Source: a virus. Taken from it: a stretch of DNA of 64,000 nt. Shown here piece by piece: positions 1 through 18,731 of the stretch (position 1 is its first letter; each line of letters starts with the position of its first letter). Location of the stretch: the IMG/VR virus record IMGVR_UViG_3300048588_001019, positions 16,486 to 80,485 of that record. One strand, written 5' to 3'. The translations under genes were made by a program, and so were the position numbers. The notes beneath the pieces were generated by a model that made no database searches, had not been told where the DNA came from, and saw nothing but the letters and a program-made list of their open reading frames with translations.

Positions 1-51
1 GTCCTGGGTAAATTTTCCTTAACTATTACTGTCAAAATAGCTTGGATGGAC

Positions 52-107
52 TATTTCATTTGAAACAAACAGCAATTTCGATTCACTCCTTGTTTCAAAT
101 GAAACAA
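52..107. promoter_or_regulatory. Tandem palindromic operator/UAS-like sites TRTTTCA-NN-TGAAACA
   Basis: TATTTCA-TT-TGAAACA at 52-67 and perfect TTGTTTCA-AA-TGAAACAA at 90-107; 54-68 and 90-104 are also a perfect 15-bp inverted repeat. Resembles Fis-type enhancer-binding-protein sites; target promoter not identified. Confidence 0.5.
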
Positions 108-405
108 CTCCTGTTCCTTTTTTTTCGATAGTTTACGGGGCGAATGACCTCATCTGAAAGAAAACCTGATTCATCTGCCGAATCATTTTCCTTTCGTTCT
201 CTGCAAGTCGTTGCCTGCTCTCAATTCGTTGCGTATTCCGACTTCTGAAAATGAACCGAGATGGATAACTTTCAAGGTCAGTCGAGTTTTCTCTCAAAGT
301 CATTCTCGTCCCTGTGTAATGCCACGCGGCTCCCACCACTCGGGCGATTAAATCTTTTGAAGGCGGGCTTCTTTGGAAGCTCCGCCTGATTTCAAATTCT
401 AAGAG

Positions 406-1620
406 ATGTTATTGGAGAGAAATATGAGGAATTTAAGAATGTTTCGAACGCTTTTGGGCGCATGTGCTCTCTTAGCATTTACGTCGGTGACTGGATTTGG
501 TTTCACTCAGCAAACGAGACGAGACGAGCTCTGCGGCGTTGAGCTTTACGAAGAGAGAAGCGATCGTCCGGACGTTTGTGGCAATAGACACGCCGTGAAG
601 GCATCGCCTGCATGCCCTTTTGATAGATTCGAGTCTGGCACCGACCTAGCCTGCCCTGGTGCAGATGCAGGTGGCCGGAAAGTTAAGCCCCAGGCCAGGT
701 TTTTCGGCAATACCGCAGTGACAATCGACTGGGGCAGAGCCCAGGGCGGCTCGATCGTACAAGGCGACGAGAACTTGAGTCAGCTCGTAGGATCCTCCTA
801 CGCTGACTATAAGACCTTTGGCACCCCCGCTAGCGGCGGCGGCGGTTATAGGTGGGTAAAAGAGAGCAGGTATTGGAGCTGCGTGCTGGAAGCTCAGAAA
901 AATCCTCAGTTCAGTTATGTCTCGGTTGAATGCACAGCCAAGCCGTACGCAACGACCTGCGAAGCGGAAAGGTTCGGAAAGATATACAAATCTTGCGAAT
1001 CCACGACTCACGAAATCGTCGGGGCGAAGACCTGCAGAAGCGATCAATTCCGACCTGAGCTTTATAAGAGCTGCAGCTTTTACAAGACGAGAGATGAACT
1101 CAATGTTTACCTCACTGAGGTCAGTTCATCTGCTGATAACTATATCATGATCCTCCCGACTCGACAGGCGGACCTTTATAGCAAACTCCGCGACGAGGCG
1201 TCTTTCAAATGCCTAATTGAAAAATATGACGGGACACCATTCATGGATGAAGTTGTAGTGGATCTGAAGGAAAAATTCTTCCTAATCTTCGGATTGCAGT
1301 ACGACGAGTCCGAGGTGGATTGCAAAAACGTTTCTATCAACGTCAATCCAGAGGTTACGGCAGGCAAATTGAATTGCAAAAATTACACCTACGATAGCTT
1401 GAAAGCTCTCATTCTTCCAGAGGGCATGAGCAAGGGGCTATTCGATAGTTTCGTTAAGAAATGTCAGTCAAAAATAGTATACGACAATCTCTCCAGCTGG
1501 TTTGAGACCAAAAAGGATGAAATCTCACTTCTGGAAGATGACTTAGCGGCTCAAAAGGACACCGGATTGCGTAACAGGCTTCTTGAATTGAAAACCAGGC
1601 TTGATGACGCCACCAAATAA
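406..1620 (+). CDS. Secreted cysteine-rich protein, first gene of putative toxin-delivery operon
   Basis: 404-aa ORF; hydrophobic signal peptide (MFRTLLGACALLAF...); recurring Cys motifs (e.g. C..ERFGKIYKSC, CRSDQFRPELYKSC); helical C-terminus; closely followed by next gene. Confidence 0.75.
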   Translation: MLLERNMRNLRMFRTLLGACALLAFTSVTGFGFTQQTRRDELCGVELYEERSDRPDVCGNRHAVKASPACPFDRFESGTDLACPGADAGGRKVKPQARFFGNTAVTIDWGRAQGGSIVQGDENLSQLVGSSYADYKTFGTPASGGGGYRWVKESRYWSCVLEAQKNPQFSYVSVECTAKPYATTCEAERFGKIYKSCESTTHEIVGAKTCRSDQFRPELYKSCSFYKTRDELNVYLTEVSSSADNYIMILPTRQADLYSKLRDEASFKCLIEKYDGTPFMDEVVVDLKEKFFLIFGLQYDESEVDCKNVSINVNPEVTAGKLNCKNYTYDSLKALILPEGMSKGLFDSFVKKCQSKIVYDNLSSWFETKKDEISLLEDDLAAQKDTGLRNRLLELKTRLDDATK

Positions 1621-2905
1621 CGCGATGAATCGGGAGCGCTGTCCTATGAAAAGCAGGTTCATTTTAGGGGTATTGGCCCTGGTGCTAAGTATGAATGTGC
1701 GTCCGGTTACTGTTTTGGGCCAAGGTATCGAGATACCTTCATGCACGATGAGCTATGGAATGGATGCCTTTCCTTTAGAGAGCCTTCGTGCGACAAAATA
1801 TTATGTTAGCTTTTGCGCCCAAAAACTCCAGAAAGCGAAGCAATGTTTCGAAAAGGCTGAGCGTGTCACTGCTGATCTTCAGCGGATTTCAGAAAGCTTT
1901 GCAAAAAGGCTAGAGCAGGGTGGGGTTGGCACCGGCAACATCTGGAATCGGTATCTTTCTTTGAAACAATCCACTCTCCAGAACCAGGAGAGAATAGGTT
2001 TATTGATAAGAGATTTTAAGGATGTTCCGACCGACGAGGCGCGTATCCTGCAGCAGATGTCGAATCTTCATACGAGGTTTGCGGCTGATATAGAGTCCCT
2101 GAACTCGGTATACAATGCCGAAAGTCAGCTTCTCGGGGCTTTGGACGAACTTCAGGCAGAGCTTGAGTCCGCGGGTCTCTCCGATGGCATGAAACTTCAG
2201 GCAAATGACGGATCTGCATGCGATCAAAAGGAATTCAGTCCGACAGCAACAAAGCTTGAACAGTTGCCTCGTCAGATGTACTCCGACTCCGTTATCATAA
2301 AAGATTCTATCACGAAGACCAGGCAAGCTCGAGAAGCGCTTGTTCAATACGCTTTCTTCTACTTTAAGCTGGCATTGGAGAATGCGTATAAGAACGCAAT
2401 CAACGGCGGTCTGTCCGATCTGGGAGGAAAACTGGATGCAGTACTGCAGGCTAAGACCGTAGGCGCTGAGTTCGAAGCCTGGGTCACCTATACAGCCACG
2501 GAGAATGACCGGAACTATCTTGAGTCGGTCTACCTTCAGTTTACAAAGCCTTTTGCCCTGGCTGTCTTGGATCAGAAAACCGCCCAAAACTTTCTCGACA
2601 GGATGCGTGTCATTAGAGATGCGTACCCTGAGGTAGCGGCACCCTACGTCACCAGAATCGAAAGTATGATCAAGTTTTTTGGTGATAAAGTGGCCCGTAT
2701 CGAGAAAAAAGGCTGGAACGGGTATCTGAGTAGCCAAAAATCCTGGGCTGACAGATACGTAGCAAACCCAGCACAAGTCTCCAAAGAGTGTGTCGCTGCA
2801 ATGAGCGAATATTTGAAATCCTATTCGGCCGTCGAGAGTTTTGACGTATTTCAGCAAGCTGAAGACGCTTACAAAGCTGCCGCCACAATTTGCAGAAGGA
2901 AATAA
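1601..2905 (+). CDS. Secreted alpha-helical/coiled-coil protein (probable start 1646)
   Basis: Signal peptide MKSRFILGVLALVLSM...; amphipathic helical composition with paired Cys; stop lies 2 nt before the probable start of the toxin gene. Confidence 0.75.
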   Translation: MMTPPNNAMNRERCPMKSRFILGVLALVLSMNVRPVTVLGQGIEIPSCTMSYGMDAFPLESLRATKYYVSFCAQKLQKAKQCFEKAERVTADLQRISESFAKRLEQGGVGTGNIWNRYLSLKQSTLQNQERIGLLIRDFKDVPTDEARILQQMSNLHTRFAADIESLNSVYNAESQLLGALDELQAELESAGLSDGMKLQANDGSACDQKEFSPTATKLEQLPRQMYSDSVIIKDSITKTRQAREALVQYAFFYFKLALENAYKNAINGGLSDLGGKLDAVLQAKTVGAEFEAWVTYTATENDRNYLESVYLQFTKPFALAVLDQKTAQNFLDRMRVIRDAYPEVAAPYVTRIESMIKFFGDKVARIEKKGWNGYLSSQKSWADRYVANPAQVSKECVAAMSEYLKSYSAVESFDVFQQAEDAYKAAATICRRK

Positions 2906-4380
2906 GAATGAGATCCCTTTTTATTCTTATCGTATCTATTCTGATTTCAAGCTGCACCCCAGGCGTTCAATCGGTATCGACTCTTAAGGATATTGATTGT
3001 GCGGGATTGGTGATTCAGCCGGGGCAGCCACCTGCGGTCTGTAACGGTTCGATTGTTTATATAGACCCCGAAACAGGACAGCTCAAATTTTCAAACTTGG
3101 TCGCCACCGTCACACAGCAAGCGGCCCAGGACATGACCAAAGACGAAATCGTTTATGCGGCTGTCGCCCCATACCTACCACCCCTGGCCGATGGTCTGTA
3201 CAAGGCAGCTATCAAAAAGAATTACAGGGACGCCTGCGAGAAAGAGCGGGACGAGATCGCGGTGAAAGAGGCAGAGGTTAAAAAACTAACAGCTGACACG
3301 AACGTCCTGCTTGCCACTGCCAACACTGAATTGCCTCGCCTCGAAAATAGTGCGAGCCAAAACGGTTTCGGACTACGAGAGAATCACGCCAGTGAGCTCG
3401 CTTCCTTCGAGCAGGCGTCGAAAGAACAGCTTGCGTCTTTGGCACAACAACTTCCGCCACCGAGCGATATTCCAGACGTAGGCCAAACCCCTGGCCAGCA
3501 ATTCCCTGAGCAGGCGAAGGTCGAAAGAGGACAGGCCCTCATAGATAACGCCGAAGCAAAAATCGGAGCGTTCCGCGGACAAAGCGATTTCGAGACGAGA
3601 AGAGGATTACTTGCTTTGGCCAAGGAGGCCATGGGAGCGGCGCGTTTATCGTACCGAAACGGGCAAGTCGCACAGGGAGACTATCTCTACAACATCGCTG
3701 TTGCGGCAGCCGACATAACTATGTCCATTGCACCGGTATTTGGTTGGGGCAAAGATTTCTACGAGGCACGATACGGCATAAATGCTTTGACTGGTAAGGA
3801 GCTGACCAAATTCGAAAGAACCATGGCCTGGGTGGGGGTAGTAACCGCAGGCATCGGTAGTAAGGTTGTGCTGGCAGTTAAGCTGGGGGCCTTCATAAAA
3901 ATAGGCAAGAATGGTCTTCAGGAGCTAGCGGAAGCGGAGAAGTTCATTAGGGCTGCAGAATCATTAGGTTTAAGAAGCACCAGTGAGATAAAAGCCTTTA
4001 GTGATGTTGCTGATAAGATGGGAAAATCTGCCGAGGAGCTTGCCGACGCCATAAAAACTGGTGTAGGTAAATCAGGCCAAGATTTCGAACAGCACCTGAT
4101 GAAAAAGCTTGGCGGTGAGCCGCCCTTCAAAGTTTCCAATTCTCGCGGTACTAGAGAATTCGACGGTAGGGTGGGAAAAGCTTGGTACGAGGCAAAGACT
4201 GGCTGGGAAGACCTTAACTTGGAAAAGTTCAAGTCAGACATGGGGAAAGGTTTATCTATATCGTCGGACGAAGGGGCTTCTTACCATTTGCTCACCAACT
4301 CAACCATTCCTGTAGATTTACAGGAATGGCTTACGAAAAAAGGTATAACGTTCGTTCATTACACTGAGGTTCCCAAATGA
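2890..4380 (+). CDS. Lipoprotein polymorphic toxin: lipobox, coiled coil, pre-toxin TG (PT-TG) domain, C-terminal restriction-endonuclease-fold toxin (probable start 2908)
   Basis: Lipobox LISSC; PT-TG-like segment DITMSIAPVFGWGKDFYEARYGINALTGKELTKFER; C-terminal PD-(D/E)xK-type motif REFDG...WYEAKTG...WLTKKGI. Confidence 0.8.
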   Translation: MQKEIRMRSLFILIVSILISSCTPGVQSVSTLKDIDCAGLVIQPGQPPAVCNGSIVYIDPETGQLKFSNLVATVTQQAAQDMTKDEIVYAAVAPYLPPLADGLYKAAIKKNYRDACEKERDEIAVKEAEVKKLTADTNVLLATANTELPRLENSASQNGFGLRENHASELASFEQASKEQLASLAQQLPPPSDIPDVGQTPGQQFPEQAKVERGQALIDNAEAKIGAFRGQSDFETRRGLLALAKEAMGAARLSYRNGQVAQGDYLYNIAVAAADITMSIAPVFGWGKDFYEARYGINALTGKELTKFERTMAWVGVVTAGIGSKVVLAVKLGAFIKIGKNGLQELAEAEKFIRAAESLGLRSTSEIKAFSDVADKMGKSAEELADAIKTGVGKSGQDFEQHLMKKLGGEPPFKVSNSRGTREFDGRVGKAWYEAKTGWEDLNLEKFKSDMGKGLSISSDEGASYHLLTNSTIPVDLQEWLTKKGITFVHYTEVPK

Positions 4381-4841
4381 ATTCTTCTATGAGTGTCACG
4401 CAACTCAAGAGTGGCATGGACTTTGTTGAACTGCTGAAGTGCTTTCTTTCAGCCTCCTGGGCGTTGGAGTATCAAGGCAAGGTCAACTTTACTCCAGTTG
4501 GGGGAGATTTTGGTGATTGGGTGTCGGAACCTTTTGTTTCTAACGAAAAGGTTTTCGAAATCATCGCAAAGAAATTATCACTCAAAGAAGACATTGCAGT
4601 TACAATCTTTTATAACGGATCTACCCACGGCGCCGATTTGCTTTTTAATCCTGCAAAAAATCAATTGACCATTAGCTGGGATGTTGATCGGGTCTTGGAT
4701 AAAGCAGGCAATTTGGATTTTCCTTGGTATATAGAAAAAGTTAAGGTCGCATTATCGGGCAGATTCGCAGGATTGGTGTTACGCTCGGAAGAGCATGATT
4801 CTGGAGGTCGCTCTTTACAAGCCAGAGAAGACGTTCTTTAA
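4377..4841 (+). CDS. Cognate immunity protein of the REase toxin
   Basis: ATGA overlap with toxin stop; 154 aa, no signal peptide; pattern (W...GKVNFTPVG..DW...DFPWYIEK) like immunity proteins found after this toxin class. Confidence 0.7.
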   Translation: MNSSMSVTQLKSGMDFVELLKCFLSASWALEYQGKVNFTPVGGDFGDWVSEPFVSNEKVFEIIAKKLSLKEDIAVTIFYNGSTHGADLLFNPAKNQLTISWDVDRVLDKAGNLDFPWYIEKVKVALSGRFAGLVLRSEEHDSGGRSLQAREDVL

Positions 4842-4852
4842 GAGTGGAAAAT

Positions 4853-5210
4853 ATGAGCGTCGGATTCATTCTTGGTAAACATGACGAAAAAAGAACGACT
4901 ATCTTGGTCGCACCTTTCAATTAATTCCAAGCAGGAAATCCTGCATAGCCCTGTAGGTCGCGCCCTTGTAACAGGTTACGTGCTCGATAACACTGGAGAT
5001 TCGATCGTTTTCGTGCCTGAACTAGTTGAATTAGGTTGGCCTGAAGGCCTCGACAACAAAACGTTACGGTCGTTCAGCGATGTCACCGAAGCCCAGCTGG
5101 AAAAATTAGAAAAGCAGGGACTTTTAACCGGCCGTCGGAAGCGCATAATAGACGAAGAACAAAATGCTTATGTTTGGGATTTTGATCAGGATTCGGGAGC
5201 CCTGCGATGA
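4853..5210 (+). pseudogene. Possible frameshifted orphan immunity-like gene
   Basis: ATG at 4853 gives MSVGFILGKHDEKRTTILVAPFN* while the long frame 4872-5210 continues; position downstream of a toxin/immunity pair. Confidence 0.35.
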
Positions 5211-5556
5211 CGTTCGTTGCCGCAAGGAATTGAAATAAATTTTCTTTGAGCGTTACCCACCTCAAGAATGGAAGAGTGATTCTTTAGGTCGCTCATTGCA
5301 GTCCAGGAAAGACGTTGTTAAGACATTCCGCGGATCAGACAGCACACGGCTGAAAGAGTTCGAACTCGATGGCTTCGAAATAAACCTTAGAAATCTGCAA
5401 TTTGGATACAAGGCTTCCCTGCGGTCTCATACATAGTCACGACGGATTGAGAATTCTGGTGAAGCTTGAGTCTCCATATACCACAGCCATTGTGCCATCT
5501 TCATACAGCAAAAGCGATCCCATCCAAAACAAAGAATTCGCCAGGGGAAGGGCACT

Positions 5557-5805
5557 GTGAAATATCTGGACAAAATGTTGTTTATAATGTGCCTAGCGTT
5601 TTATGCCTGGGGAATGATCGACGGCCGCGCTAAGTTTTGGGGAATGATCGGTGGAAATTCCACCTTCATATTTTATATTTTACTGTTGCGCAAACGGAAG
5701 GGGCAACGCCTCGTTGATGTGAGTGTTATGGTATTGATCGTATGCGTAGTCCTCCTTCTAGGCTTGCAGATCCTCGACTATATGAGAGATTTGCAGAAGG
5801 CCTGA
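5557..5805 (+). CDS. Small membrane protein (about 3 TM)
   Basis: 82 aa with three hydrophobic stretches; purine-rich RBS-like sequence upstream. Confidence 0.55.
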   Translation: MKYLDKMLFIMCLAFYAWGMIDGRAKFWGMIGGNSTFIFYILLLRKRKGQRLVDVSVMVLIVCVVLLLGLQILDYMRDLQKA

Positions 5806-5931
5806 ACGTTGACTATTCTGCGACTCCGTATTTTTGTTAAAGACCTTTTTCAGGGGAGAAGCTGAGGCATGCTGAGTTGTCATGCCTTCTGCTTATGAGA
5901 GCCTGTTGACGTTTGTCATGCTTTCGTGGAC

Positions 5932-7100
5932 TTACTGAAACAGAGTTTGAATCATTCGTATTGTCTCTCTCTGATTCTCGATTTCAATCTGGCGCTGCTC
6001 CATTTCAAGCCGCCCTTTTTGTATATCGATCTGAGCCTCGGCACCCTTGCGATGCAGCTCGACCTGCTCTTCTTGAAGGGCAAGATATTCTTCTTCGGCT
6101 TTGGCTTTGCGTTCTTCCTGCATTTTCTTTGCCTTTTCTTCCTCGTCTTTGGCACTATTTGCTGCGACCATTGGAGCCAATTTAAGGCGAACTAATCTGC
6201 AAAATTTTGGGGTGCTTAGGCAGTCCTCACTCGCATCTGCAAGCCTTTTGCATGAAATCTGGATTTGGGAGTTACATTCCTCGGCGAGAAGGGCTACCCC
6301 CTTCTCATAGAGCTGAGAGGAAAGACGGCCATTTTTTACCTTAATGCGAAGGGTGTCGGCGCTTTTTGCAGCTTCCACACATGCAGCGCCGTCAAGCGTC
6401 CCCATGCAAAGTATTCCTGCTGCTAAAAGCTCGTTTCTGGTGTCCTGGTTTGGCTGGCCACACTAAGCGCTTCACTACAGTTCTTCTTAATTGCAGCGAT
6501 TCCCTGATCCTTTTGTGCTGCAATACAGAGACCAATACGAGCCCTGGTTCTAAAGGAGTTCGCCCCTGGTCCAGAGTATGTTTCAAGAATCTTGAGTGCG
6601 TTTGAACAGTGGTCAGCATATTCGCTTTTCTGCGGCACCATACGACACTTTTGTGACAGCTCTGTCAGAAGTTTTTCTTCTTCCAGAACCTTGGCGTTGT
6701 CCGTGACACCATTCTTGCTTGGAGACAAAGGGGAGCTGATTGCGGCTTGATAAGCTTCGTATGATGGCTCAATACACTGAATTACGAGCTTGGCTTGAAC
6801 CCAACGATTGAAGGTATTAGGGTCAATTTTTCGCTCAGTAACTACTGAGTCAAAGAGCTTGGATCCTTTTGGGCAGATTGCGTCGATTTTCGGCTTTAGC
6901 GATGCCTGCGCGGATGCAAGAATCTGTTCTTTATTGAACTCAGTATGAAGATTCTGGATAGTGGTTTCGACCTCATAACGCCGCGGCTTTACAACTTCGG
7001 GAGGCAGCGACTCATGCCAGCTAATCTCAGAAATACTGTCAGTCGCGCAAGAGAGCTGAGTGAAAGCAGTCAATAAAAATAGGTGCTGTAAACACTTCAT
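5932..7100 (-). pseudogene. Cys-rich lipoprotein with C-terminal coiled coil, split by a frameshift near 6445
   Basis: ORF 6423-7100 has a lipobox (QLSC); the frame of ORF 5932-6405 stays open upstream (DTRNELLAAGILC-MGTLD...) and overlaps its end, so one indel fuses them. Confidence 0.6.
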
Positions 7101-7169
7101 GAATGAGTCTCATCAGGATTGTTCGCCTCGCCCGATGTGAAGCGAGCTTCAATAGTAGTTGCAAGGTAA

Positions 7170-7454
7170 TCAGCTGGCTTTTGCCATCCCCGTCTTTGCA
7201 GTAGCTTGATTCCTAGCCTTTTTCTTTAACTTTTTTGCTTCCGATGTTTCTAAATTTTTCTGAATGACGCTTAAACCGCCTCCGCACTTTGCGCTTAATT
7301 GAGTGCCGTCGCAGCATTGATTGGAGCAGACGCCTCCTTGGTGAGAACAGCATCCTCGTCGACCTTCCGCGACTTGCGATATCGGAAGTAAGACTGCGGT
7401 GGCGAATATGAATCTCTTCAACAGCTTCATAAGTAACCTCAAATTTTTGAGCAA
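7170..7454 (-). CDS. Small secreted Cys-rich protein (GCCSHQGGVC motif)
   Basis: Signal peptide followed by RRGCCSHQGGVCSNQCCDGTQLSAKC and a basic tail. Confidence 0.65.
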   Translation of the reverse strand: MLKNLRLLMKLLKRFIFATAVLLPISQVAEGRRGCCSHQGGVCSNQCCDGTQLSAKCGGGLSVIQKNLETSEAKKLKKKARNQATAKTGMAKAS

Positions 7455-7699
7455 CCTATCACTTCCACCAGACCTGTAAAGACCATTCTCTACGAAAATC
7501 GAATGTTCGGCGAGTTGGGCATTTATCCGAACAATAAATGAGCAATAGTAGCAAGAAAATGTCCATCATGCCTTGGCGATATCCTGCAAATGACGGAATT
7601 TATGTAACTTTGAAAGTTAAGAGGTGCTTGGACGCCGGGACCTTAAGCGCGGAACTATCAAGTTTTCTATTATGCCTTAGGGGCTAGGCCACCAAATGG

Positions 7700-7980
7700 C
7701 CTTATAGGAGAAGCATCGTGAAAGCATTTCCTCTGACAATGCTAATCCGACGAAGACTGATTTGCTGGTTGAGATGGTAGGGCAGTAAAGAAATCTTAAC
7801 CTTTGGATGCCATCGAGGTGATGCTTCAAGTGTGCGCAGCCACTTCCTATATCATGGGTCAGTGGTTTGTGATTGACCATCGCAATGAGGGCAGCGGTCA
7901 ATAGATCCCCAGATAGCCAAGGATAGTGTTCCGCACTCTGAACACGCAGCGGCAATTTCCATTTGTTCCAGGATAGTAAA
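7700..7980. repeat. Scaffold repeat R1 copy A (upstream gene end + 16-bp motif + Zn-finger gene)
   Basis: Aligns with 12700-13000 (agcatcgtg...ctgacaa...aatccga...aagact; gaccatcgcaatg; ccccagat.gcca) and with 13160-13310. Confidence 0.85.
7785..7800 (+). repeat. 16-bp motif copy 1 (GTAAAGAAATCTTAAC)
   Basis: One of six same-orientation matches to GTAAAGRAWTCTTAAC. Confidence 0.9.
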
Positions 7981-8040
7981 AACCAGTGCTTCAAATTCGG
8001 GTTTCGATGATTTCCTTTTGGCGAAGGTTAATGGTGACAC
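7852..8040 (-). CDS. Small CxxC-x13-CxxC zinc-finger protein, copy A
   Basis: CSECGTLSLAIWGSIDRCPHCDG; paralog at 12858-13055 conserves the Cys residues and LSLAIWG. Confidence 0.7.
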   Translation of the reverse strand: MSPLTFAKRKSSKPEFEALVFTILEQMEIAAACSECGTLSLAIWGSIDRCPHCDGQSQTTDP

Positions 8041-8294
8041 TCCTAATCAATCATCTTCAGAAGTGTTGAGCTAGGGAGGTGGATCATTACAGTATGTCAG
8101 ACCCAAAGGGTAGGAAATTGATTTCATCCGCGGAATTGTGAGTTGCTTACCAAAGAAGTATCCAGGCAACGTCTTGTATTTCGCTCAGCACAGAACATAG
8201 CCCCTACAGAGTATTTATTAAACAATCGAAAGTATTGACAATATTCAGCTGATGAAGGGGCGTGGTACCCAGGAAATATCTCAGTCGGAATTGC

Positions 8295-8321
8295 TAAAGC
8301 TTTCATCCGCTTCACCGATCC
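8295..8321 (+). promoter_or_regulatory. Putative sigma28 (FliA-type) promoter
   Basis: TAAA-N15-ACCGATCC, 37 nt upstream of the 8359 start; consensus TAAA-N15-GCCGATAA. Confidence 0.5.
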
Positions 8322-8358
8322 TTCTCTCAGATGGGTTTGCGCAAACGAGGCTTAAAAG

Positions 8359-10674
8359 ATGAAGAGTCTTCTGATATTCCTGATAGCGACCGTGATAACT
8401 TCATGCGGAGTGGACAAAAAGTCCAGTAGCGAAACGAGCGATGGATTGTCGTGCCCATCAGCGATAGTCAGTCCCGCTGTCCCGGCAGCCGCAGGTCAAT
8501 TGGTTTTCACTCTTCCCGAAACTATTGATAGCTGTTCAGTGGAAGGTTATGTCGTTGGCTATGAAGGTACTCTTAAAGTTGAGAGAACTAATGAAGGTTT
8601 TTTTGTTCTAAACAATATTCCCGCAGGCCAGCTCGACATTATTATCACAGGTAACGACGTTGGAGCAGGTTTATGGCTCGACAAGAAGGAAAAAGAGCGT
8701 GGCAAGAGGATCAAGAAAACCAAAATCCTAAATGGTGTTAAAACAGACGGCGGTGAAATCGATCTTCCTAGAATGGGCATAATTGTAGGCAAAGCAGTAC
8801 TTAATGGCCAAACAGATCATGCCGGTATTGATGTTTATGTTCCTGGTACTGAATACACTGCAAAGACAGATACTGAGGGAAAATTCTCGTTCACTGCAGT
8901 TCCAGTAGGTGAACATAACCTTTATTTTGAAAAAGATGGGTATCACCGTGGCCAGATTGAAGGGATTAAAGTTGCAGAGTCGATCGAGACGAAGCTCGAT
9001 GATTTGACATTGGTTTTGTCGACTGGAGCTGAAGGTTTCATTATTATTGAAAACGGTGCAGCTTTAGTGAATTCCAGAACTGTAAACCTCAATATTGGTG
9101 CTACGGAAGATGCTGTGCTGATGAAAATATCTGAATCAAACGTGTTCGAAGGCGTTTCTTGGAAACCAGTGAAAAGCTCCCTGCAATATGTTTTTGATAG
9201 CCAAGGTGAAAAAAAGCTATATGTAAAATTTGCAAATGCCAATGGTCTTGAAAGTTCCCCGTTCACAGATGAAGTAATTGTAGATATTTTTTCGAATGGC
9301 AGCGCGATATTTGCACCATCATATTCAGTGTCGTCTGTTGTTCCTCCCTCTAGTACCTTTACTCTTTCAAATATCGCATTGCCTGGAAATGCAACTGAAA
9401 TGATGGTTTCTACATCATCGACTTTTTCGGGAGCATCATGGGAAACGCCGACAACGAACAAACAGATTGTTTTTCCGGCAAACTATTCCAGTTGTGGCAC
9501 CAAAAAGTTCTACCTGAAATTTAAGGATTCGGATGGTTACGAGAGTCCTACTACAAGCAAAAGTGCTGATTTATTGTGCTGGGAAAGTATGTCATCGTCC
9601 GGTGCGCCAATTGTCAGTAGCGGTATTAATGGAGCGAACGGGTATCAACCCAATCCTTTACCGTGGACGGGTTCTGAGGTTTTGTTGGTTGGTTACAACT
9701 CTGGAATGTTGGGGGGGAATACCATTGGTGCAGGAGCATATAACCCTGAAACTGATACGTGGCGAAGCTTGTCTACAACCGGACACACGGGTACTTTGTT
9801 CGGCTATGTTTCGGTGCTCACTAACACTGGAAAGCTAATAACATGGGGCGGCAGTGATCTTGATGGAACGCCTCTTCATAGCGATGGAGCAATATTTTCC
9901 ATTGGCAGTAATTCTTGGACTCCAATGTCAAATATCAATTCGCCCTCTGCTAGATACAACCTGTCCGGTATTTGGACTGGTGAAACAGGTAATGCTATTA
10001 CAAGCAATCGCCTAATTTTGTGGGGTGGACAATCATATTCTTATCCAACAGATGGCTTCATATATCGAGCTGATAATGATAGTTGGTCGTCAATCAATTC
10101 TACAAATGCTCCTCAAGCAAGGTCATCAGCGAATATTACCTGGGCCAGTAATAACATGATCGTTTGGGGTGGGTATAGCACGTGTCCTGGTTGTCAACCA
10201 ATTAACGATGGGGGTCTGTATGATCCGTCAAATGACACCTGGACAGCGACTGCTATCGGGCCGACAGCAAGATACGGTCATGCATTTGTGAAGACTTCCG
10301 ATGATGAAATATTTGTGTGGGGTGGATTCGCGCCAAATGGCCTCTCAGTTTTTGCCGATGGAATGATCTTTACGCCATCTACAAATTCTTGGAGATCAAT
10401 TTCAAGTACTGGGGCACCTTTGCCAAGAGGTAATGTTGCAGCAGTCGCATTGGACAATGGGAGAGTTTTCGTGTTCGGTGGTCAAGATGCTGCCAGCGGT
10501 TGCTTCAATACGACTGGTGCAATTTATGATTCAAGAGCCAACACATGGACTTCGGTCACCTACGGAGACACAGCACTCGATAGATCGGGGTGTGCGCAGT
10601 ATTACTTATCTTGGACCGGGTCAAAGGTGGTGATTTGGGCATTGGATCGTGGGGTTATTTTTAGTCCTTTTTGA
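8359..10674 (+). CDS. Surface lipoprotein with carboxypeptidase-regulatory-like/Ig-like domains and a Kelch-type beta-propeller
   Basis: Lipobox VITSC; TDTEGKFSFTAVPVGEHNLYFEKDGY; repeated WGG...DG..Y.P...W blades. Confidence 0.85.
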   Translation: MKSLLIFLIATVITSCGVDKKSSSETSDGLSCPSAIVSPAVPAAAGQLVFTLPETIDSCSVEGYVVGYEGTLKVERTNEGFFVLNNIPAGQLDIIITGNDVGAGLWLDKKEKERGKRIKKTKILNGVKTDGGEIDLPRMGIIVGKAVLNGQTDHAGIDVYVPGTEYTAKTDTEGKFSFTAVPVGEHNLYFEKDGYHRGQIEGIKVAESIETKLDDLTLVLSTGAEGFIIIENGAALVNSRTVNLNIGATEDAVLMKISESNVFEGVSWKPVKSSLQYVFDSQGEKKLYVKFANANGLESSPFTDEVIVDIFSNGSAIFAPSYSVSSVVPPSSTFTLSNIALPGNATEMMVSTSSTFSGASWETPTTNKQIVFPANYSSCGTKKFYLKFKDSDGYESPTTSKSADLLCWESMSSSGAPIVSSGINGANGYQPNPLPWTGSEVLLVGYNSGMLGGNTIGAGAYNPETDTWRSLSTTGHTGTLFGYVSVLTNTGKLITWGGSDLDGTPLHSDGAIFSIGSNSWTPMSNINSPSARYNLSGIWTGETGNAITSNRLILWGGQSYSYPTDGFIYRADNDSWSSINSTNAPQARSSANITWASNNMIVWGGYSTCPGCQPINDGGLYDPSNDTWTATAIGPTARYGHAFVKTSDDEIFVWGGFAPNGLSVFADGMIFTPSTNSWRSISSTGAPLPRGNVAAVALDNGRVFVFGGQDAASGCFNTTGAIYDSRANTWTSVTYGDTALDRSGCAQYYLSWTGSKVVIWALDRGVIFSPF

Positions 10675-11015
10675 TACTCAACGGGATTACGTGCGAGCTG
10701 ATAAACTCAGAAAAAATGCGCGAAATCAAATCCATTGTATGCCTTGATAAGAAATGTTGTGTGGGCTTTAGTGATCTGTATGTATTGTCGTATTTTCTAT
10801 CTGATGGTTGAATAGCGTGTATCGCCTTCATATCTGCGACTACAATATATTAATAGAAATATCTAAACTGCACAATAACCGGGCATCGTATGGGTAACAA
10901 CCCTATTTGGGTCCTTCATGGCAGGGGGGCCTCACTAGCTGGCTGATTCCTTTTCTTTGCGGAAGAAAATCAGGGGTATGTTCGGTGGCATTAAGAGGAT
11001 TTGTCGAACCACAGC

Positions 11016-12344
11016 TTAGCCGGCAGAATCAAGATCCCAATGTTCTGCAAGAAAGGCATCTCTGACTTTTTCTCGCTCTCGCTCGTATGCTCTGAACTTT
11101 TCAACATCCTCCAAGACACTGCGCATTCCGTGAGCCCGTATAGAAACGAGCAACGATCTGCCCCAGAACAATATCTGCATAGCAAACCCAATCCCAAAAG
11201 AACCCAAAAGGCAGACGCTTGTGTATTGTTTTAGCCCAAGATTAGGCAAGTTCAATGCAATTATCGAGCCTGCTGTGAAGGCTGCTGTTGAAGCCATGCT
11301 GCCAAGCCAGACAGCCCAAGGGAATCGTTTGTCAGAGTCGACGATCCATGCCGACAAATGAGCATGCGCAAATCCAAGTCCGCGAGTAAGGATATCGTCC
11401 TTGGTTGTCAAATTGAATGCACTTCCACAAAGGGCATAGGAGTATGCTACACCGGGTGCAGAGTTGAATCCCAACGATACACACCTTTCTGCGATCGATG
11501 CTGAAACCATTGAAATTCCGCCGCCAAGGCTATGTCCGACAGTAAGAATAAATTCCGCCGCCTCAGAATCACATTTTTTTAGGATTTCCCTCGTTGCAAC
11601 TTCATAACGATGATGACGCGTTACCAAAGAAGGAAATCTGAAAGCCAATTCATTCCAAAAAAGATGAAATACGTACGTCACGGCTATCATCCAGAGGAGT
11701 ATGAAGAAAGTCTTCTTAAAATCGGAGACTGAATAACTTGAATAGTATAGACCAGTTGCCAGGATAAAACTCGACACCACAAGAAGAGTAGTGCACATCA
11801 AGATCGGGAGGACAGGTATCAAGCGCATAGCATTGGTGAACGAAATCTCGCCCCGGAGCAGCATCAAATTTTGCCTCCAATTTGAAATAGAAGGCACGGT
11901 GCCTCGGACTACCACAATCCTATGTCTGCCCCCATTGGCTTTAAAAACCCACGCTTTCAACTTCTTCTCTGGAATGTAGCATCGCGAAAAACTTTCGGGA
12001 ATTTTTTCAATCAGTTCCTTATCGAGTTCATCATAGTATACGGCATCAGACAGCAATGCACAGCGTTCAACGACATCCAGATTCTCTCGTTTGAATTTGT
12101 TGACAATCCATCTCAACTCTTCTCTTCGCTCTGCAAAGGAGAGTTTAGTTAAACGCTCTTGTTGTGGTTTCTCCGTTCTCAAAGCGTTTCTACTAAGCAC
12201 TTCCTCGATTGTTCGGAAATGCCCGACTATGTCGTCGGCTATGTACGGCATGTTCTCTCCAGGCGAGAAATTGAATGTAAGAGATAATTGTAAGCCACCT
12301 AGCCAAAGTCGGTAGTAAAGATTTTCGGTTTTCAAACTCTGCAT
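11016..12344 (-). CDS. Class 3 lipase-like alpha/beta hydrolase with transmembrane insertions (probable start 12251)
   Basis: VVVRGT oxyanion motif, GHSLGGG nucleophile elbow, FNSAPG, DD and a C-terminal His (AHGM); two pairs of hydrophobic helices. Confidence 0.8.
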   Translation of the reverse strand: MQSLKTENLYYRLWLGGLQLSLTFNFSPGENMPYIADDIVGHFRTIEEVLSRNALRTEKPQQERLTKLSFAERREELRWIVNKFKRENLDVVERCALLSDAVYYDELDKELIEKIPESFSRCYIPEKKLKAWVFKANGGRHRIVVVRGTVPSISNWRQNLMLLRGEISFTNAMRLIPVLPILMCTTLLVVSSFILATGLYYSSYSVSDFKKTFFILLWMIAVTYVFHLFWNELAFRFPSLVTRHHRYEVATREILKKCDSEAAEFILTVGHSLGGGISMVSASIAERCVSLGFNSAPGVAYSYALCGSAFNLTTKDDILTRGLGFAHAHLSAWIVDSDKRFPWAVWLGSMASTAAFTAGSIIALNLPNLGLKQYTSVCLLGSFGIGFAMQILFWGRSLLVSIRAHGMRSVLEDVEKFRAYEREREKVRDAFLAEHWDLDSAG

Positions 12345-12699
12345 TCATATAATTAACCATACCCCAGTATATTGGCTTTCCAGGCACCTGCATTCTTACA
12401 GACCAGAGGATTGTGATGGGATGAAGTTTTCGAGTTGATGAGCGTTTGATCACCACGTGTGCGACAACTACTGAACCAAGACTCAACTCCGATAGGATCC
12501 CTTAGCTCAGACGGCACCGGATGACAGCTGCGGCCCGACAGTCTAAATGGGTAGCAAAAAATGCGGGTCTTAACACACTGATTCTATGAATAAAAAAAAC
12601 TTCTCTGTGACGGTAGTCGGGTGGATTTAGTGAGGGCGCTTTTCCTAAGTGTTCTGTGAATCCTAGTGAATGTGGGCTTCAGGATAGTTTGTTGAGAAG

Positions 12700-13000
12700 G
12701 CCTTTTGGGATGAGCATCGTGGTGCATATCCCCCTGACAACACGAATCCGAGCAAGACTCATTTTGTTAAGCAGCAGGCAGGGTTATGGCGGTAAAGGAT
12801 TCTTAACCTGCGAAAGGATGTCGGAGCCACGCCTCAAGCTTCCACAGGTTGTCTTCATCACGGGTTTGTTGATTGCGACTGACCATCGCAATGTGGACAA
12901 GGTCCTGTTGCTCCCCAGATTGCCAGTGATAGCTTCCCGCAGTCGGGGCACGCTGCATCGAATTGCATTTGTTCGAGGAGCGATGTTACTTGCTTTTCAT
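12700..13000. repeat. Scaffold repeat R1 copy B
   Basis: Diverged direct repeat of 7700-7980; contains motif copy 2 at 12792-12807. Confidence 0.85.
12792..12807 (+). repeat. 16-bp motif copy 2 (GTAAAGGATTCTTAAC)
   Basis: Followed by second box gcctcaagcttcc. Confidence 0.9.
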
Positions 13001-13055
13001 GGTCGATCATCATTTTATTTCCTTTGAAAGGGTTATCGTTGACCCATTCAATCAA
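12858..13055 (-). CDS. Small zinc-finger protein, copy B
   Basis: CPDCGKLSLAIWGATGPCPHCDG. Confidence 0.7.
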   Translation of the reverse strand: MIEWVNDNPFKGNKMMIDHEKQVTSLLEQMQFDAACPDCGKLSLAIWGATGPCPHCDGQSQSTNP

Positions 13056-13159
13056 TCATTTTCCGCCTCGGTCTTCCACGGAGATGAACTGGCAATAAAA
13101 TGTCTCTTGCTAAGTGACTTTCAACAAAACCCACTCTGCCTTTGAGTGTGGAATGCAGC

Positions 13160-13310
13160 CTGGCCGTAAAGAAATCTTAACCGTGCATTAGGGCCATCGA
13201 GGCGATGCTTCAAGCTTCCGCATGGCCTTGCCTCTACCGCCTATATCATGGGTTTGCAGTTTGTGATTGACCATCACAATATGGGCAATGGCCTGTGGAT
13301 CCCCAGGCAT
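13160..13310. repeat. Scaffold repeat R1 copy C (motif copy 3 at 13166-13181 + 3' half of Zn-finger gene)
   Basis: GTAAAGAAATCTTAAC...gcttcaagcttccgc; minus strand reads AWGSTGHCPYCDGQSQTANP*, with the N-terminal half missing. Confidence 0.85.
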
Positions 13311-13485
13311 GTTGGCCTTACTGCTAAGTTGATAGGGATTGACCGAGGTGCTTACTTCAGATCGGGGCAACTCAATCAGGCATGGAGGACGACGTTGCAA
13401 GAAAACTATATTAGATAAGGGATATGGTAGCGATAAATCGCTAGTCCAAAATTCCGATCTATTATAGCGTAATCTCGCTTTTTCC

Positions 13486-13812
13486 TTAGATTTCCGACGG
13501 ATTGTTTCCAGGATAGTTGGGATTGACTCGCATAAGCCCTTCCGCATCCACATAAACCATGTTCCTGTCTTCCATCGAGCTGATTGCGCTACGCAAATTG
13601 GAGATTGCTTTGTCTTCCTTCATAACTTGCAGAATATAATTCATAAATATTACCTCCTCTTCTATGCTCATAGCTTCAATAATGTCACGCTTGTAATAAG
13701 GTGAAGGATAATAGTCAGTATAACTGCCCTGGATAGAGTCGGACATCTTGCGCTTAAATTGTTCTTTGAAAAGTTTGCACTTATGACTATAAGAAGCATT
13801 TCCTCTATTCAT
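13486..13812 (-). CDS. Hypothetical protein, possible winged-helix C-terminus
   Basis: 108 aa; third gene of a co-oriented low-GC trio; ends ...SMEDRNMVYVDAEGLMRVNP. Confidence 0.55.
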   Translation of the reverse strand: MNRGNASYSHKCKLFKEQFKRKMSDSIQGSYTDYYPSPYYKRDIIEAMSIEEEVIFMNYILQVMKEDKAISNLRSAISSMEDRNMVYVDAEGLMRVNPNYPGNNPSEI

Positions 13813-13846
13813 ATTTTTGCCTCACAATTCGGATTGATTTTTAGTG

Positions 13847-15127
13847 CTATTCTCTCGAATGTCTAGCATATTCCCAATCCAGAGTTGTCTCGCCTTTTGA
13901 CCACCAGAATGTTCTGAAAGCACGTTCAGTAAGGTTCTTAATTGTTGCGCTCCTGCTGCTTTGAATATTGTCGAGCTCTCTGTAGTAAGATTCCAACTGA
14001 AAAACATCCTCGCCTGCCTTGATTAGGTCTATTATCTTTCTAATTGACTTTGTTATGAGTTGGTTGTCGCCTTTTTTTTCCACATAGCTTCCTAGAGATG
14101 CCATCATAGGAATCAAAAACGTACTGGTGCTGTTTGGCAGGATGTTCATGTACTTTGGTTCTTCAGTGTCTTCATAGAATCGATGAATGACCGGGTGAAG
14201 CTCATTTGTAATCATGGCGACTGCTTTGCAAACTTCGTCAAGCTTCTCGTCGACTATATCCTCTTCTTCCTTTATGCTCCAAAATAAAGAATCCGTCGAA
14301 GTGCTCTTAGAAAGCATATGATTTCTTTCCAAGAACGCTTGAATAGCCATAATAAGCTCAGCACCTACAAATTGATTTCTCTTCGATCCTGTATGCGAGT
14401 CTTTCAAGAAAGTTGCACCATGGCTCTTCTCGAGGTTCTGAAGTATGTTATGCTGCATTATTTCAAGTTGGTGGTTGAGAGACATGCGCTTTTGCGCGGT
14501 GTTGAAAATTATCATATATTTCAATAAATCTTTGATTTCTAGGTTATAATATACTTCCAATCTGATGTGCGCATTCAATACACGGTCTAAGACGCCTTTG
14601 TCCAAATGGGGCTGAAACTCTTCGAACTCAACGGGTTTCAAAATACCTTGCTCAATTATCTTTTCTTTGTGAATAGCAAGATAGAAAGCTATCAAAAAGC
14701 ACGCATATCTTTGCAAACCGTCAATGATGGATACTTTGTAATCACCACGTGCAAAAGCCTGAATATCAAATTTAGATAGCTTAGCGGAATCCTTGAGAAC
14801 GGCTACTCGTAATTCTGGTATTAGATGTCCATCGAGAATTGAGATTACAAGCTTTTTGTAGATCTTATCCGTCAAATGGTTTTGGAGCTTGCGTTGAAAG
14901 AAATTTTCCTTCAAGCTGGCAATTGGAATGAGTGCATGTAGATAAGTATGAACATGGGTTACAATGGCCCCAGTTCTTATATCCCTGAGATTTCTGTCTG
15001 TGCTGATCTCCCAAAAATCAACTGTATTCCGCGATCTCTTGGACGGCGAAGGTACGTTCTGGGTAGTTTGCTCAATCAACGAAAATAATGCTCTTTGCTT
15101 TTCATCAGATGTAAGATTTTTTTTCAT
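13847..15127 (-). CDS. ParB/Srx-like (DUF262/DndB-related) DGxQR-motif protein
   Basis: FFQRKL...IPEL...IIDGLQR...IFNTAQK motif order typical of ParB-like NTPase domains. Confidence 0.7.
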   Translation of the reverse strand: MKKNLTSDEKQRALFSLIEQTTQNVPSPSKRSRNTVDFWEISTDRNLRDIRTGAIVTHVHTYLHALIPIASLKENFFQRKLQNHLTDKIYKKLVISILDGHLIPELRVAVLKDSAKLSKFDIQAFARGDYKVSIIDGLQRYACFLIAFYLAIHKEKIIEQGILKPVEFEEFQPHLDKGVLDRVLNAHIRLEVYYNLEIKDLLKYMIIFNTAQKRMSLNHQLEIMQHNILQNLEKSHGATFLKDSHTGSKRNQFVGAELIMAIQAFLERNHMLSKSTSTDSLFWSIKEEEDIVDEKLDEVCKAVAMITNELHPVIHRFYEDTEEPKYMNILPNSTSTFLIPMMASLGSYVEKKGDNQLITKSIRKIIDLIKAGEDVFQLESYYRELDNIQSSRSATIKNLTERAFRTFWWSKGETTLDWEYARHSRE

Positions 15128-16661: not shown

Positions 16662-18731
16662 TTGCACTGCGTTAAAAATATCCAAGGAATTGCCATGCAC
16701 AACGATCTTCGAACTTCCTTAACCCGTAGCGCCATTGAGAAAGCATTGAGCTACATCGATGGTGGTGGAACGTCTCGATTAGACCGGACAAGTGATTATG
16801 TGCTGCAGTCGCGACATAATTCATACCAGCTTACCCAAGTCATAGGCATTGCTTCGAAATGGGCCATAGGAGAATACCTTCAGGATGAGGATTTGCCAGA
16901 AGACCTAGATAAATGGTGTGTTAGCACGTTACGCATGCTGGGCTATTCGATTAGGAAGACCTCAGGAACAGATAATCAAAAAATATGGATAGAAAATGTA
17001 TTGGATTGCCACGAGCAACTATCCCCGTTCTGGAGAATAGGGGAGCGGCTCATTGCCCCAATTAATCTCGAATCCAATTCAGCTAACCTTATTAAGAATA
17101 TAAAATCCGGAGACCTTGTATTGCATTGCCAAGGTGGAGAATTTGTCGGGCTTTCTGAAGTTGCGCTAGAGTGCCTGCCTGTTATTTGCTCAGCGCCACA
17201 AAAAGGCCAATGGAAAGGATGTCGAGCATTTTTCGAGGTTACTTTGAGGGATTTTCGAAGGTTTTCAAAGCCAGTTCCAAATCCAGGTGGTGAAGCGAAT
17301 GATTATATATGCGTGAGTAGCTTAGATGCCTTAGATCATGTTTCGAGTGCTGCATGGTCACGTGAATCGGATGAGATCAGTGATTCAATGAACGTGTGGT
17401 TGGTTTCGATAGGAAGAAATAGAAAAGCGTGGCATGAATTTTCGGAGAAGTCCATCGTCGCGTTAGCAGCAGATCATCTTGGAGACCTTAGTCACTACCC
17501 CAGTGCTTCGAGTATAGAGGAATCCCTTGTGGCAGAGGGTATCTGTGACAGTCGTGACTTGAAAAAGCTCACAGATGCTTACTTCAGTTTTCGTTCAGGG
17601 ATGGTTGTCGGTTCGTGGATCGCTCTAAGGACGGGTGGCAATGAAATTGTGGGCCTAGGCAGGGTTACGTCGGACTACTTTTTCGATTCGACTGAACGTA
17701 GGCATGTACGTTCGGTTGAGTGGCTATCGTCAGAAAAAAGAGTAATACCCAACTTTGAGTTAAGCGAAGATGATTCTGTACAGAAAGTTGAACTAAATAG
17801 GTACCTGCATCCTGGCATTAGGAATGTTCTTAATGCAAGTGGATTGGAGTTTAGTCCAAACATTGTTACAAAGAGTCAGTGCATTTCGAATATCTTCATT
17901 CCTAAGGGGTCTTTTGATGAAATAGTTGCGTCGTTGGAAATGAAGAAAAACATCATTCTTCAAGGGCCTCCAGGAGTCGGGAAGACCTTTGTTGCAAGAG
18001 TGATCGCAAATTGTCTGATGGGTGTAGATGATAATGGAAAAGTTGAATTGGTCCAGTTTCACCAATCTTATGCTTACGAAGATTTCATTCAAGGATGGAA
18101 GCCCAACAAAAATGGTGGATTTGAAATTAGGAACGGAATTTTTTATGAATTCTGCAATAGGGCGAGGTTGCAGCCGAAGAAGCGGCATGTCTTCATAATT
18201 GACGAGATTAATCGAGGGAACCTTAGTAGGATTTTTGGAGAATTGTTACTTCTCATCGAGGCAGATAAGCGTGGCTATAAGCATGCGATACCTCTAACTT
18301 ATGCGCCATCGGAAGTCTTCTGCGTACCTCCCAATGTTTTCATAATTGGATTGATGAATACCGCAGATAAATCTGTATCATCATTTGACTACGCTTTAAG
18401 AAGGCGGTTTACGTTTTTTACAGTAGACCCCTGTTTCAGCTCACCTGAAGGAGCTGAAAAATTTAAGAGCTACCTCATATCTAAGAATGTGACGGAAACA
18501 TGCGTCGAAAAAATTATTCGAGTCATGACAGATCTCAATCAACATATTGCTAGTAAAAAGTACGCGAAGAGACTTGGGAAAGGTTTTCAGATAGGGCACA
18601 GCTACTTTTGTCCTTCGGATGATCGTAGCAAGGACGACACTTGGTTTGAGCAAATATGGCAGCATGAAATCATCCCAATTCTGCAGGACTATGGTATCGA
18701 TGATGACGAAATTAAGAAAGTAGCTGGATGA
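16662..18731 (+). CDS. mcrB: McrB-family AAA+ GTPase with multi-domain N-terminal DNA-recognition region
   Basis: GPPGVGKT Walker A, QFHQSYAYEDF, IDEINRGNLSRIFGE, MNTADKS, ALRRRF, IGHSYF; N-terminus has two EVE/PUA-like segments (IKSGDLVL...; GLGRVTSDY). Confidence 0.93.
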   Translation: MHCVKNIQGIAMHNDLRTSLTRSAIEKALSYIDGGGTSRLDRTSDYVLQSRHNSYQLTQVIGIASKWAIGEYLQDEDLPEDLDKWCVSTLRMLGYSIRKTSGTDNQKIWIENVLDCHEQLSPFWRIGERLIAPINLESNSANLIKNIKSGDLVLHCQGGEFVGLSEVALECLPVICSAPQKGQWKGCRAFFEVTLRDFRRFSKPVPNPGGEANDYICVSSLDALDHVSSAAWSRESDEISDSMNVWLVSIGRNRKAWHEFSEKSIVALAADHLGDLSHYPSASSIEESLVAEGICDSRDLKKLTDAYFSFRSGMVVGSWIALRTGGNEIVGLGRVTSDYFFDSTERRHVRSVEWLSSEKRVIPNFELSEDDSVQKVELNRYLHPGIRNVLNASGLEFSPNIVTKSQCISNIFIPKGSFDEIVASLEMKKNIILQGPPGVGKTFVARVIANCLMGVDDNGKVELVQFHQSYAYEDFIQGWKPNKNGGFEIRNGIFYEFCNRARLQPKKRHVFIIDEINRGNLSRIFGELLLLIEADKRGYKHAIPLTYAPSEVFCVPPNVFIIGLMNTADKSVSSFDYALRRRFTFFTVDPCFSSPEGAEKFKSYLISKNVTETCVEKIIRVMTDLNQHIASKKYAKRLGKGFQIGHSYFCPSDDRSKDDTWFEQIWQHEIIPILQDYGIDDDEIKKVAG

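Follow-up and report, generated by a model that had tools for sequence, protein, structure and literature searches.

Polymorphic toxin systems combine a conserved N-terminal trafficking part with recombining C-terminal toxins and an adjacent cognate immunity gene (PMC3482391). Among those described, the system closest to the locus considered here is sitBAI of Myxococcus, in which the lipoprotein toxin SitA is delivered by TraAB outer-membrane exchange (PMC5562445, PMC8546572). SitA consists of an escort domain of ~375 amino acids (aa) and a modular C-terminal nuclease, is encoded with a SUKH-type immunity gene, and resides on a prophage-like carrier (PMC5562445, PMC8546572). The upstream accessory protein SitB has a type I signal, is encoded by a gene that overlaps the toxin gene, is predicted by I-TASSER to be an outer-membrane beta-barrel, and raises transfer efficiency; HMMER detects SitA homologues only in Myxococcales carrying traAB (PMC5562445). 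The present locus is a four-gene cassette (g1 to g4) at positions 406-4841 of a 64,000-nucleotide (nt) stretch of DNA, hereafter the window, which corresponds to bases 16486-80485 of the 80.5 kb IMG/VR virus record IMGVR_UViG_3300048588_001019.

The cassette and sitBAI share a lipoprotein toxin whose N-terminus (~300-400 aa) defines the family and whose C-terminal nuclease is modular, a cytoplasmic immunity gene (SUKH and others) located directly downstream, an upstream accessory gene, overlapping or abutting that of the toxin, whose product has a type I signal, the presence of multiple copies per genome, and carriage on prophage-like elements. The two differ in the number of accessory proteins (one in sitBAI, two here), in the predicted fold of the accessory protein (beta-barrel for SitB, all-alpha for g2), in host (Myxococcales with traAB versus Oligoflexia), and in the pre-toxin TG (PT-TG) domain, which is present here and is unmentioned for SitA (PMC5562445, PMC8546572). 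At present sitBAI is best viewed as a close analogue in function.

The PT-TG domain also invites comparison with other toxins. A 2026 survey reported 'singleton' and 'toxin' PT-TG architectures in diderms for which no secretion route is known, and mentions neither lipoproteins nor Oligoflexia (PMC13483458). The LXG/WXG toxins of a type VII secretion system (T7SS) variant, T7SSb, with their Lap helpers, likewise have a PT-TG domain before an exchangeable tip, a downstream immunity gene, and alpha-helical partners encoded immediately upstream of the toxin (PMC13483458). However, LXG toxins and the small helical Lap helpers lack Sec signals and belong to monoderms, whereas three of the proteins described here carry Sec or lipoprotein signals and g1 and g2 span 400-430 aa. 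LXG toxins contain an LXG/WXG domain, while g3 contains neither, and WXG100 was absent from all five sequence sets searched (the record and four cassette-bearing genomes), in which the controls responded. Hcp (PF05638) of type VI secretion systems (T6SS) was absent from the same five sets with a responding control; VgrG and PAAR were not searched separately there, and Pfam revealed no Hcp, VgrG, or PAAR domain in g1-g4 and no FHA or TPS domain in g3. A search for ShlB returned no match, but its controls were silent too. Substrates of T6SS or T7SS are not expected to carry Sec or lipoprotein signals. As judged by Hcp and WXG100, the lack of T6SS and T7SS hallmarks, first proposed from the letters of the window alone (the original prediction), extends to the record and the four cassette-bearing genomes.

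A conserved cassette with exchangeable toxin tips

The cassette comprises four tightly packed open reading frames (ORFs), all on the plus strand: g1 (406-1620), encoding a predicted secreted, Cys-rich accessory protein of 404 aa; g2 (1601-2905), encoding a predicted secreted, elongated accessory protein of 434 aa; g3 (2890-4380), encoding the predicted lipoprotein toxin; and g4 (4377-4841), encoding a putative cytoplasmic immunity protein of 154 aa. The stop codon of g3 overlaps the start codon of g4 in an ATGA. These coordinates agree with the four packed, co-oriented genes of the original prediction, and its description of the products (a Cys-rich exported g1, a helical exported g2, a g3 with lipobox, PT-TG segment, and PD-(D/E)xK-type tip, and a signal-less g4) is likewise upheld by sequence, conservation, the models of g2 and the tip, and the match of g3 to PF14449.

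Direct homologues of the cassette proteins are few and include those of Oligoflexus tunisiensis Shr3, in which g1-g2-g3-g4 (L003, 7750-11962) occur in identical order in a chromosomal, non-phage context. Of the 131 genomes available for the O. tunisiensis phylum, 27 have matches to a g2 profile, often several each, and the flanks of 39 g2 matches were retrieved and analysed with purpose-built hidden Markov models (HMMs). A protein with a PT-TG core (510-870 aa) follows g2 in 33 of 36 downstream ORFs, the other three being cut by contig ends; all 33 informative loci therefore have g2 followed by a PT-TG toxin, which is mostly a lipoprotein. A gene of the g1 family (one BLAST-linked family) precedes g2 in 29 of 31 upstream ORFs, and neighbouring genes in related loci for the most part overlap or abut. 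Upstream of g1, the related loci have no additional gene in common, and the conserved cassette includes no lysis or release gene. Overall, the cassette recurs ~40 times in Oligoflexia with many different tips. A scan of viral contigs with the toxin alignment returned no relatives. The marker gene of the system is g2, for which an exhaustive profile search among 1.84 billion representatives recovered 197 clusters. All named members of the g2 family are annotated as 'hypothetical protein' and come from Oligoflexus or Pseudobacteriovorax (both class Oligoflexia), which are the named carriers of the cassette; named g1 homologues, too, bear no annotation other than hypothetical. Neither g1 nor g2 matched any Pfam or NCBIfam family, and literature searches found no published description of the cassette, consistent with the earlier view that it belongs to no described system.

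The toxins of these loci are highly polymorphic. Clustering of the 31 full-length toxins gives 18 groups by N-terminus and at least 19 by tip, and the downstream (immunity) ORFs form 26 clusters, with six tip types occurring on a single N-terminal type. Tips recognised by Pfam include LHH, WHH, EndoU, TNT, Col-Pyo_DNase, ART, CdiA_C, Cytotoxic, C39, and trypsin, and the downstream ORFs include SUKH/SMI1, Imm45, Imm40, Imm35, Barstar, a WapI-like protein, and an ADP-ribosylglycohydrolase. The cassette thus has both defining properties of a polymorphic toxin system, namely diverse tips on shared N-termini and a tip-matched downstream immunity gene, and it is a real and conserved system of this kind. 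The original prediction that homologues of g1 and g2 would be linked to lipoproteins with conserved N-termini and swapped tips was borne out by the linkage counts and tip diversity given above. Across the 21 complete loci, Mantel tests demonstrate that divergence of the toxin N-terminus is correlated with that of g2 (r=0.51) and g1 (r=0.30) and that tip divergence is correlated with that of the immunity protein (r=0.28, p=0.001), while the correlation of tip with N-terminus is not significant (r=0.14).

Signs of module exchange are also visible at the locus itself. Three public DNA runs contain contigs 95-99% identical to the window from approximately nt 1 to 3969 or 4040. One contig of run X2 leaves the window sequence at 3969 into 144 unlike letters and another re-enters at 4849 after 197 unlike letters, while a contig of run X1 joins 4040 to 4849, with weak support (side 26). 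The missing contig coverage over the tip and g4 was not used as evidence by itself; only the joints in X2 and X1 were considered. These breakpoints match the linker preceding the tip on one side and the g4 end (4841) on the other, and they look as would be expected for replacement of the tip and immunity module. Contigs of 151 nt from a soil RNA library (X19) map to g2 and g3, a hint, without being proof, that these genes are transcribed.

The genome of O. tunisiensis illustrates the range of related arrangements, with two cassettes of the g1-g2 type and a third PT-TG locus. One of the cassettes (locus C) consists of a g1-family gene, a g2 paralogue, a gene for a lipoprotein whose tip is of the Peptidase_C39 type, and an Imm35 gene, in this order. 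The g1 protein of locus C did not match the small g1 profile and enters the g1 family only through BLAST single linkage; its match to a broadened g1 profile is circular because it was part of the training set. The third PT-TG locus (locus B; L006, G001:C1:6622000-6641900, 8055-14462, minus strand) encodes a toxin with the P0003 N-terminus and a different tip, preceded by two secreted proteins, one Cys-rich (633 aa) and one helical (568 aa), with no homology to g1 or g2 in profile-profile or broadened-HMM tests. The toxin gene is followed by a pentapeptide-repeat ORF, after which a 202-aa ORF repeats the 'YKCNFMR' piece of the toxin N-terminus and may be an orphan module. Elsewhere, a g1-family gene lies directly 3' of the immunity gene in L071 (7793-9217) and L078 (4351-5346), an arrangement that suggests tandem cassettes.

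Architecture of the toxin, immunity, and accessory proteins

The g3 ORF encodes 496 aa from a TTG at 2890 or 490 aa from an ATG at 2908. The latter is probably the start codon because it is preceded by a GAAGGA Shine-Dalgarno sequence and lies 2 nt past the g2 stop. Translation from this ATG begins with MRSLFILIVSILISS-C, a predicted type II signal peptide (2908-2955) with the lipobox LISS-C, in which the codon for Cys22 occupies 2953-2955; here, as for the other proteins, signal peptides were assigned from sequence features and conservation. The lipobox Cys is kept in at least 90% of the 31 toxins, with a clear lipobox in 25. The toxins of L012, L062, and L052 have an Asp at position +2 after this Cys (CDSS, CDSK, and CDPD, respectively). 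In Escherichia coli, an Asp at this position is an inner-membrane retention signal; the membrane location of the family may be non-uniform, or the sorting rule in Oligoflexia may be different.

Following the signal peptide, an N-terminal 'escort-like' region (2956-3705), which co-diverges with g1 and g2, yielded no neighbour in an Atlas structure search. It is followed by the PT-TG domain (residues 273-331; 3706-3882), whose match to PF14449 (E 3e-9, 37.2 bits versus a cut-off of 23.5) is the sole Pfam match of g3; NCBIfam has no family for this protein. The PT-TG motif is kept in all 31 toxins, and Pfam detects PT-TG at E<=0.001 in 25 of them. A helical linker (3883-4065) connects the PT-TG domain to the tip and holds the recombination junction for tip exchange. 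The same linker is found in the toxin of L062, whose tip differs and whose downstream ORF is unrelated to g4.

The tip (residues 393-496; 4066-4377) is supported as a PD-(D/E)xK-type nuclease domain, presumably acting on nucleic acid, by motif and modelled structure. Residues E400, D425, E434, and K436 are invariant in five sequences with identities down to 49%. The AlphaFold2 (AF2) model of the tip (predicted local distance difference test (pLDDT) 71.5, moderate) has the topology a-b-b-b-a-b-a-b, which includes the alpha-beta-beta-beta-alpha-beta core, and places the catalytic residues on helix 1, the start of beta2, and beta3, which are their canonical places. In structure comparisons with VIA, PD-(D/E)xK nucleases account for eight of the best 10 matches (Z 5.8-7.0 over 87-97 aligned residues), and the relatives recovered at Z 5.7-7.0 are VC1899, AF1548, Card1, Cdn1, NucS, CdiA-CT of EC869, Can2, CdiA-CT of Yersinia pseudotuberculosis, and TseT. 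Foldseek gave no match at E<=0.001, and comparison with PDB sequences gave no match by sequence or profile. As the Z values are middling, membership of the fold rests on the motif, the topology, and the coherent list of matches taken together. The two CdiA-CT toxins and TseT, which align to the tip with Z 6.2 over 97 aa (EC869), 5.8 over 89 aa (Y. pseudotuberculosis), and 5.7 over 102 aa (TseT), share with it the PD-(D/E)xK core and the E/D/ExK arrangement of catalytic residues. They differ in that they have no detectable sequence similarity to the tip and are delivered by type V secretion (T5SS) or T6SS, compared with a lipoprotein here, and in that g4 belongs to no recognised immunity family.

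The g4 protein (4377-4841) lacks a signal peptide, is 37% identical to its O. tunisiensis orthologue, and matches no Pfam or NCBIfam family. A metagenome scan recovered the tip in four further loci (L080-L083), of which L080 and L081 are near-identical cassettes and L082 has the tip on another carrier protein. A g4 homologue lies directly 3' of the tip in each of the three loci inspected for it (L081, L082, and L083), the copy in L083 being 35% identical (E 4e-21). The last of these (1216-6760) is a low-GC metagenome locus that encodes a DUF4280/PAAR-like protein and a 794-aa effector, together with a 204-aa orphan module that repeats the pre-toxin stretch of the effector, ends in the tip type of the window, and is followed by the g4-like gene. 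This arrangement indicates that the pair of tip and immunity protein is common to very different delivery systems. The role of g4 as the immunity protein, part of the original prediction, is therefore favoured by co-occurrence, since in these three unrelated carrier contexts the gene follows the tip as a cognate immunity gene would.

The likely start codon of g1 is the ATG at 424, which is preceded by GGAGAG, and the protein begins with a hydrophobic signal. The N-terminal half of g1 consists of variable, Cys-bounded repeats and the C-terminal half (approximately residues 184-404) is conserved and helical; 13 Cys are invariant in five homologues, which are 42-81% identical. The Atlas model of g1 is poor (pLDDT 0.35) and has no structural neighbours. 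The signal peptide of g2 probably starts at MKSRF (nt 1646), and its AF2 model (pLDDT 85.6) is all-alpha and elongated, with helices of up to 88 residues. Four Cys (C82, C207, C397, and C431) are kept in at least 90% of 35 g2 homologues, and a GW motif is conserved as well. The conserved Cys of both g1 and g2 agree with an oxidising environment, and the two proteins are likely to be extracytoplasmic. Foldseek comparison of g2 with known structures gave no match at E<=0.001, and the VIA matches were confined to spectrin-like or designed helical bundles of a generic kind. Matches of g2 to ClyA (Z 9.2) and AhlB (Z 8.8) are within the noise of the tool for helical proteins, and residues 191-212 form a polar loop that differs in this from the beta-tongue of the ClyA family; a role for g2 as a pore former of the ClyA/AhlB type is unsupported.

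Possible roles of the accessory proteins

The locus is probably a polymorphic toxin system of the Oligoflexia (Bdellovibrionota) that uses the Sec/lipoprotein pathway and in which g1 and g2 aid the presentation, release, or transfer of the toxin. In such a system, g3 would leave the cytoplasm through Sec, receive its lipid at Cys22, and become anchored in the envelope, with its N-terminal region and PT-TG module carrying the exchangeable C-terminal nuclease, and g4 would remain in the cytoplasm of the producer to neutralise the nuclease. The Cys-rich g1 and the long helical rod of g2, products of the same tightly coupled operon, would be disulfide-bonded accessory proteins of the periplasm or cell surface that bind g3 through its N-terminal part and help it to be presented, released, or passed on to neighbouring cells, much as SitB boosts the transfer of SitA. 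The tip would then cross into the cytoplasm of a target cell and cut nucleic acid unless g4 is present. We infer that g1, g2, and g3 may assemble into a physical delivery complex, and the co-divergence of g1, g2, and the g3 N-terminus is compatible with such an interaction without being proof of it. The bolder proposal that g1, g2, and the g3 N-terminus constitute an unrecognised, self-contained cell-to-cell route of diderms for lipoprotein toxins exported by Sec and Lol, independent of T5SS, T6SS, T7SS, and TraAB, is put forward tentatively, as a possibility that may well prove wrong.

Several observations weigh against the favoured interpretation. Approximately six of the 31 toxins lack a clear lipobox, and neither g1 nor g2 contains a recognisable functional domain. 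The PT-TG toxin of locus B does without homologues of either protein, so that these families are not obligatory for PT-TG toxins, and the co-divergence described above could reflect inheritance as one unit alone. With respect to the tip, the confidence of the model is only moderate (pLDDT 71.5), the Z scores reach at most 7.0 when values under 8 are within the common range of the tool, and g3 matches no Tox-REase or other nuclease family of Pfam at E<=1.

The same data can be read in other ways, of which the most serious is that g1 and g2 protect or process the toxin, keeping it inactive or stable in the periplasm of the producer or barring its re-entry, with delivery by an unrelated route such as vesicles, lysis, or diffusion. 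Both proteins are Sec-exported and rich in conserved Cys, they co-diverge with the N-terminus of the toxin and not with its tip, which would fit a chaperone equally well, and SitB itself is only an accessory that raises efficiency. However, tips that act in the cytoplasm already have cytoplasmic immunity genes, and a second, periplasmic layer of protection made of two large conserved proteins is therefore not obviously needed. A purely protective role appears unlikely, although nothing computational tells protection and delivery apart. If instead g1 and g2 had no role in toxin function and were linked to the toxin solely by shared ancestry and operon hitch-hiking, the existence of locus B would be readily accommodated. 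Such hitch-hiking is very hard to reconcile with linkage in 33 of 33 informative loci and in 27 genomes with several copies each, maintained at ~15-25% identity while tips and immunity genes were replaced, and with gene junctions that for the most part overlap or abut; it is highly improbable.

The setting of the cassette, with a phage replication module on one side and a packaging and structural module of lambda-like type on the other, raises the alternative of a released, colicin-like or multi-component bacteriocin, in which g1 and g2 would provide receptor binding and translocation in trans. Since the cassette sits in a prophage-like element, release by lysis is plausible, and the weak matches of g2 to the pore formers ClyA and AhlB (Z ~9) could be taken in the same sense. 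Colicins have coiled-coil domains, of which the helical rod of g2 is reminiscent. Nevertheless, the O. tunisiensis orthologue, the one related locus screened for phage genes, has non-phage flanks, the helical matches of g2 fall in the noise range of the tool and its polar loop does not resemble a beta-tongue, and no lysis or release gene belongs to the conserved cassette, all of which leave a bacteriocin rather improbable. Aid by g1 and g2 to the presentation, release, or transfer of an envelope-anchored lipoprotein toxin remains the reading that we favour.

Prophage-like setting and biological implications

A prophage-like element carries the cassette as cargo in its accessory region, a setting that the original prediction did not include. 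Phage genes for replication and recombination make up a module on the 5' side of the cassette (DnaD-like protein, DUF3799 exonuclease, AAA_24, SSB, and methylase), and 44-64 kb of the window hold a lambda-like set of terminase, portal, S49 protease, capsid E, and tape-measure protein. The accessory region between the replication genes and the terminase (window 1-44000, ~44 kb) is unusually long. The exact g1 and g2 proteins, together with a 490-aa form of g3 that shares a 90% cluster with P0001, are recorded from eight contigs, the longest of 1.16 Mb, indicating that the element is integrated in a bacterial genome. Apart from the cassette, the accessory region encodes a Kelch lipoprotein (8359-10674), McrBC (16662-19795) and a C5 methylase (20637-21812) in convergent orientation, an RHS/YD-shell protein on the minus strand (24901-28848), two proteins resembling class III cyclases, AbiTii (40744-41802), and DUF3800 (42306-43349).

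Across the whole record, short direct repeats of 100-570 bp (73-95% identity) are scattered between the accessory modules, for example at window 22189-22317 and 43806-43934 (95%), window 23898-24346 and 35127-35560 (84%), and record 11648-12215 and window 22467-23035 (79%). Such repeats may serve as recombination sites in the exchange of cargo; the record has no repeat copy of the toxin cassette. Just 5' of g1, a GC-rich inverted repeat (AGGCGGGC...GCTCCGCCT) occurs at window 363-392, and contigs of other runs part from the window sequence at 357/358, which together may mark the left boundary of the cassette. On the other side, g4 is followed by g5 (112 aa; window 4872-5210), which is kept with the cassette in no related locus, and a 247-nt contig from the RNA library, 100% identical to the window, covers small ORFs at 5471-5717. 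No orphan tip or immunity remnants were found at window 4800-8400, and scans of the locus for promoters and terminators gave results no better than shuffled sequences.

So far, experiments have established polymorphic lipoprotein toxins that have an exported accessory protein only in myxobacteria, where delivery depends on TraAB. The cassette represents a second system of this type in another phylum, with two conserved accessory families (at 50% identity, g2 comprises ~200 clusters), a clear operon grammar, and tips and immunity genes in great variety. Its tip and g4 constitute a new candidate PD-(D/E)xK toxin and immunity pair, apparently common to unrelated, low-GC delivery systems. The prophage-like carriage parallels that of Mx-alpha and sitBAI and suggests that phages spread such kin-discrimination weapons. 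With two cassettes of the g1-g2 type, O. tunisiensis Shr3 is a cultured carrier in which genetics is feasible. The secretion of diderm PT-TG toxins was left open by the 2026 survey (PMC13483458), and the cassette offers one concrete, testable answer; if true, a self-contained route formed by g1, g2, and the g3 N-terminus would account for the 'orphan' PT-TG toxins of diderms to which that survey assigned no secretion system.

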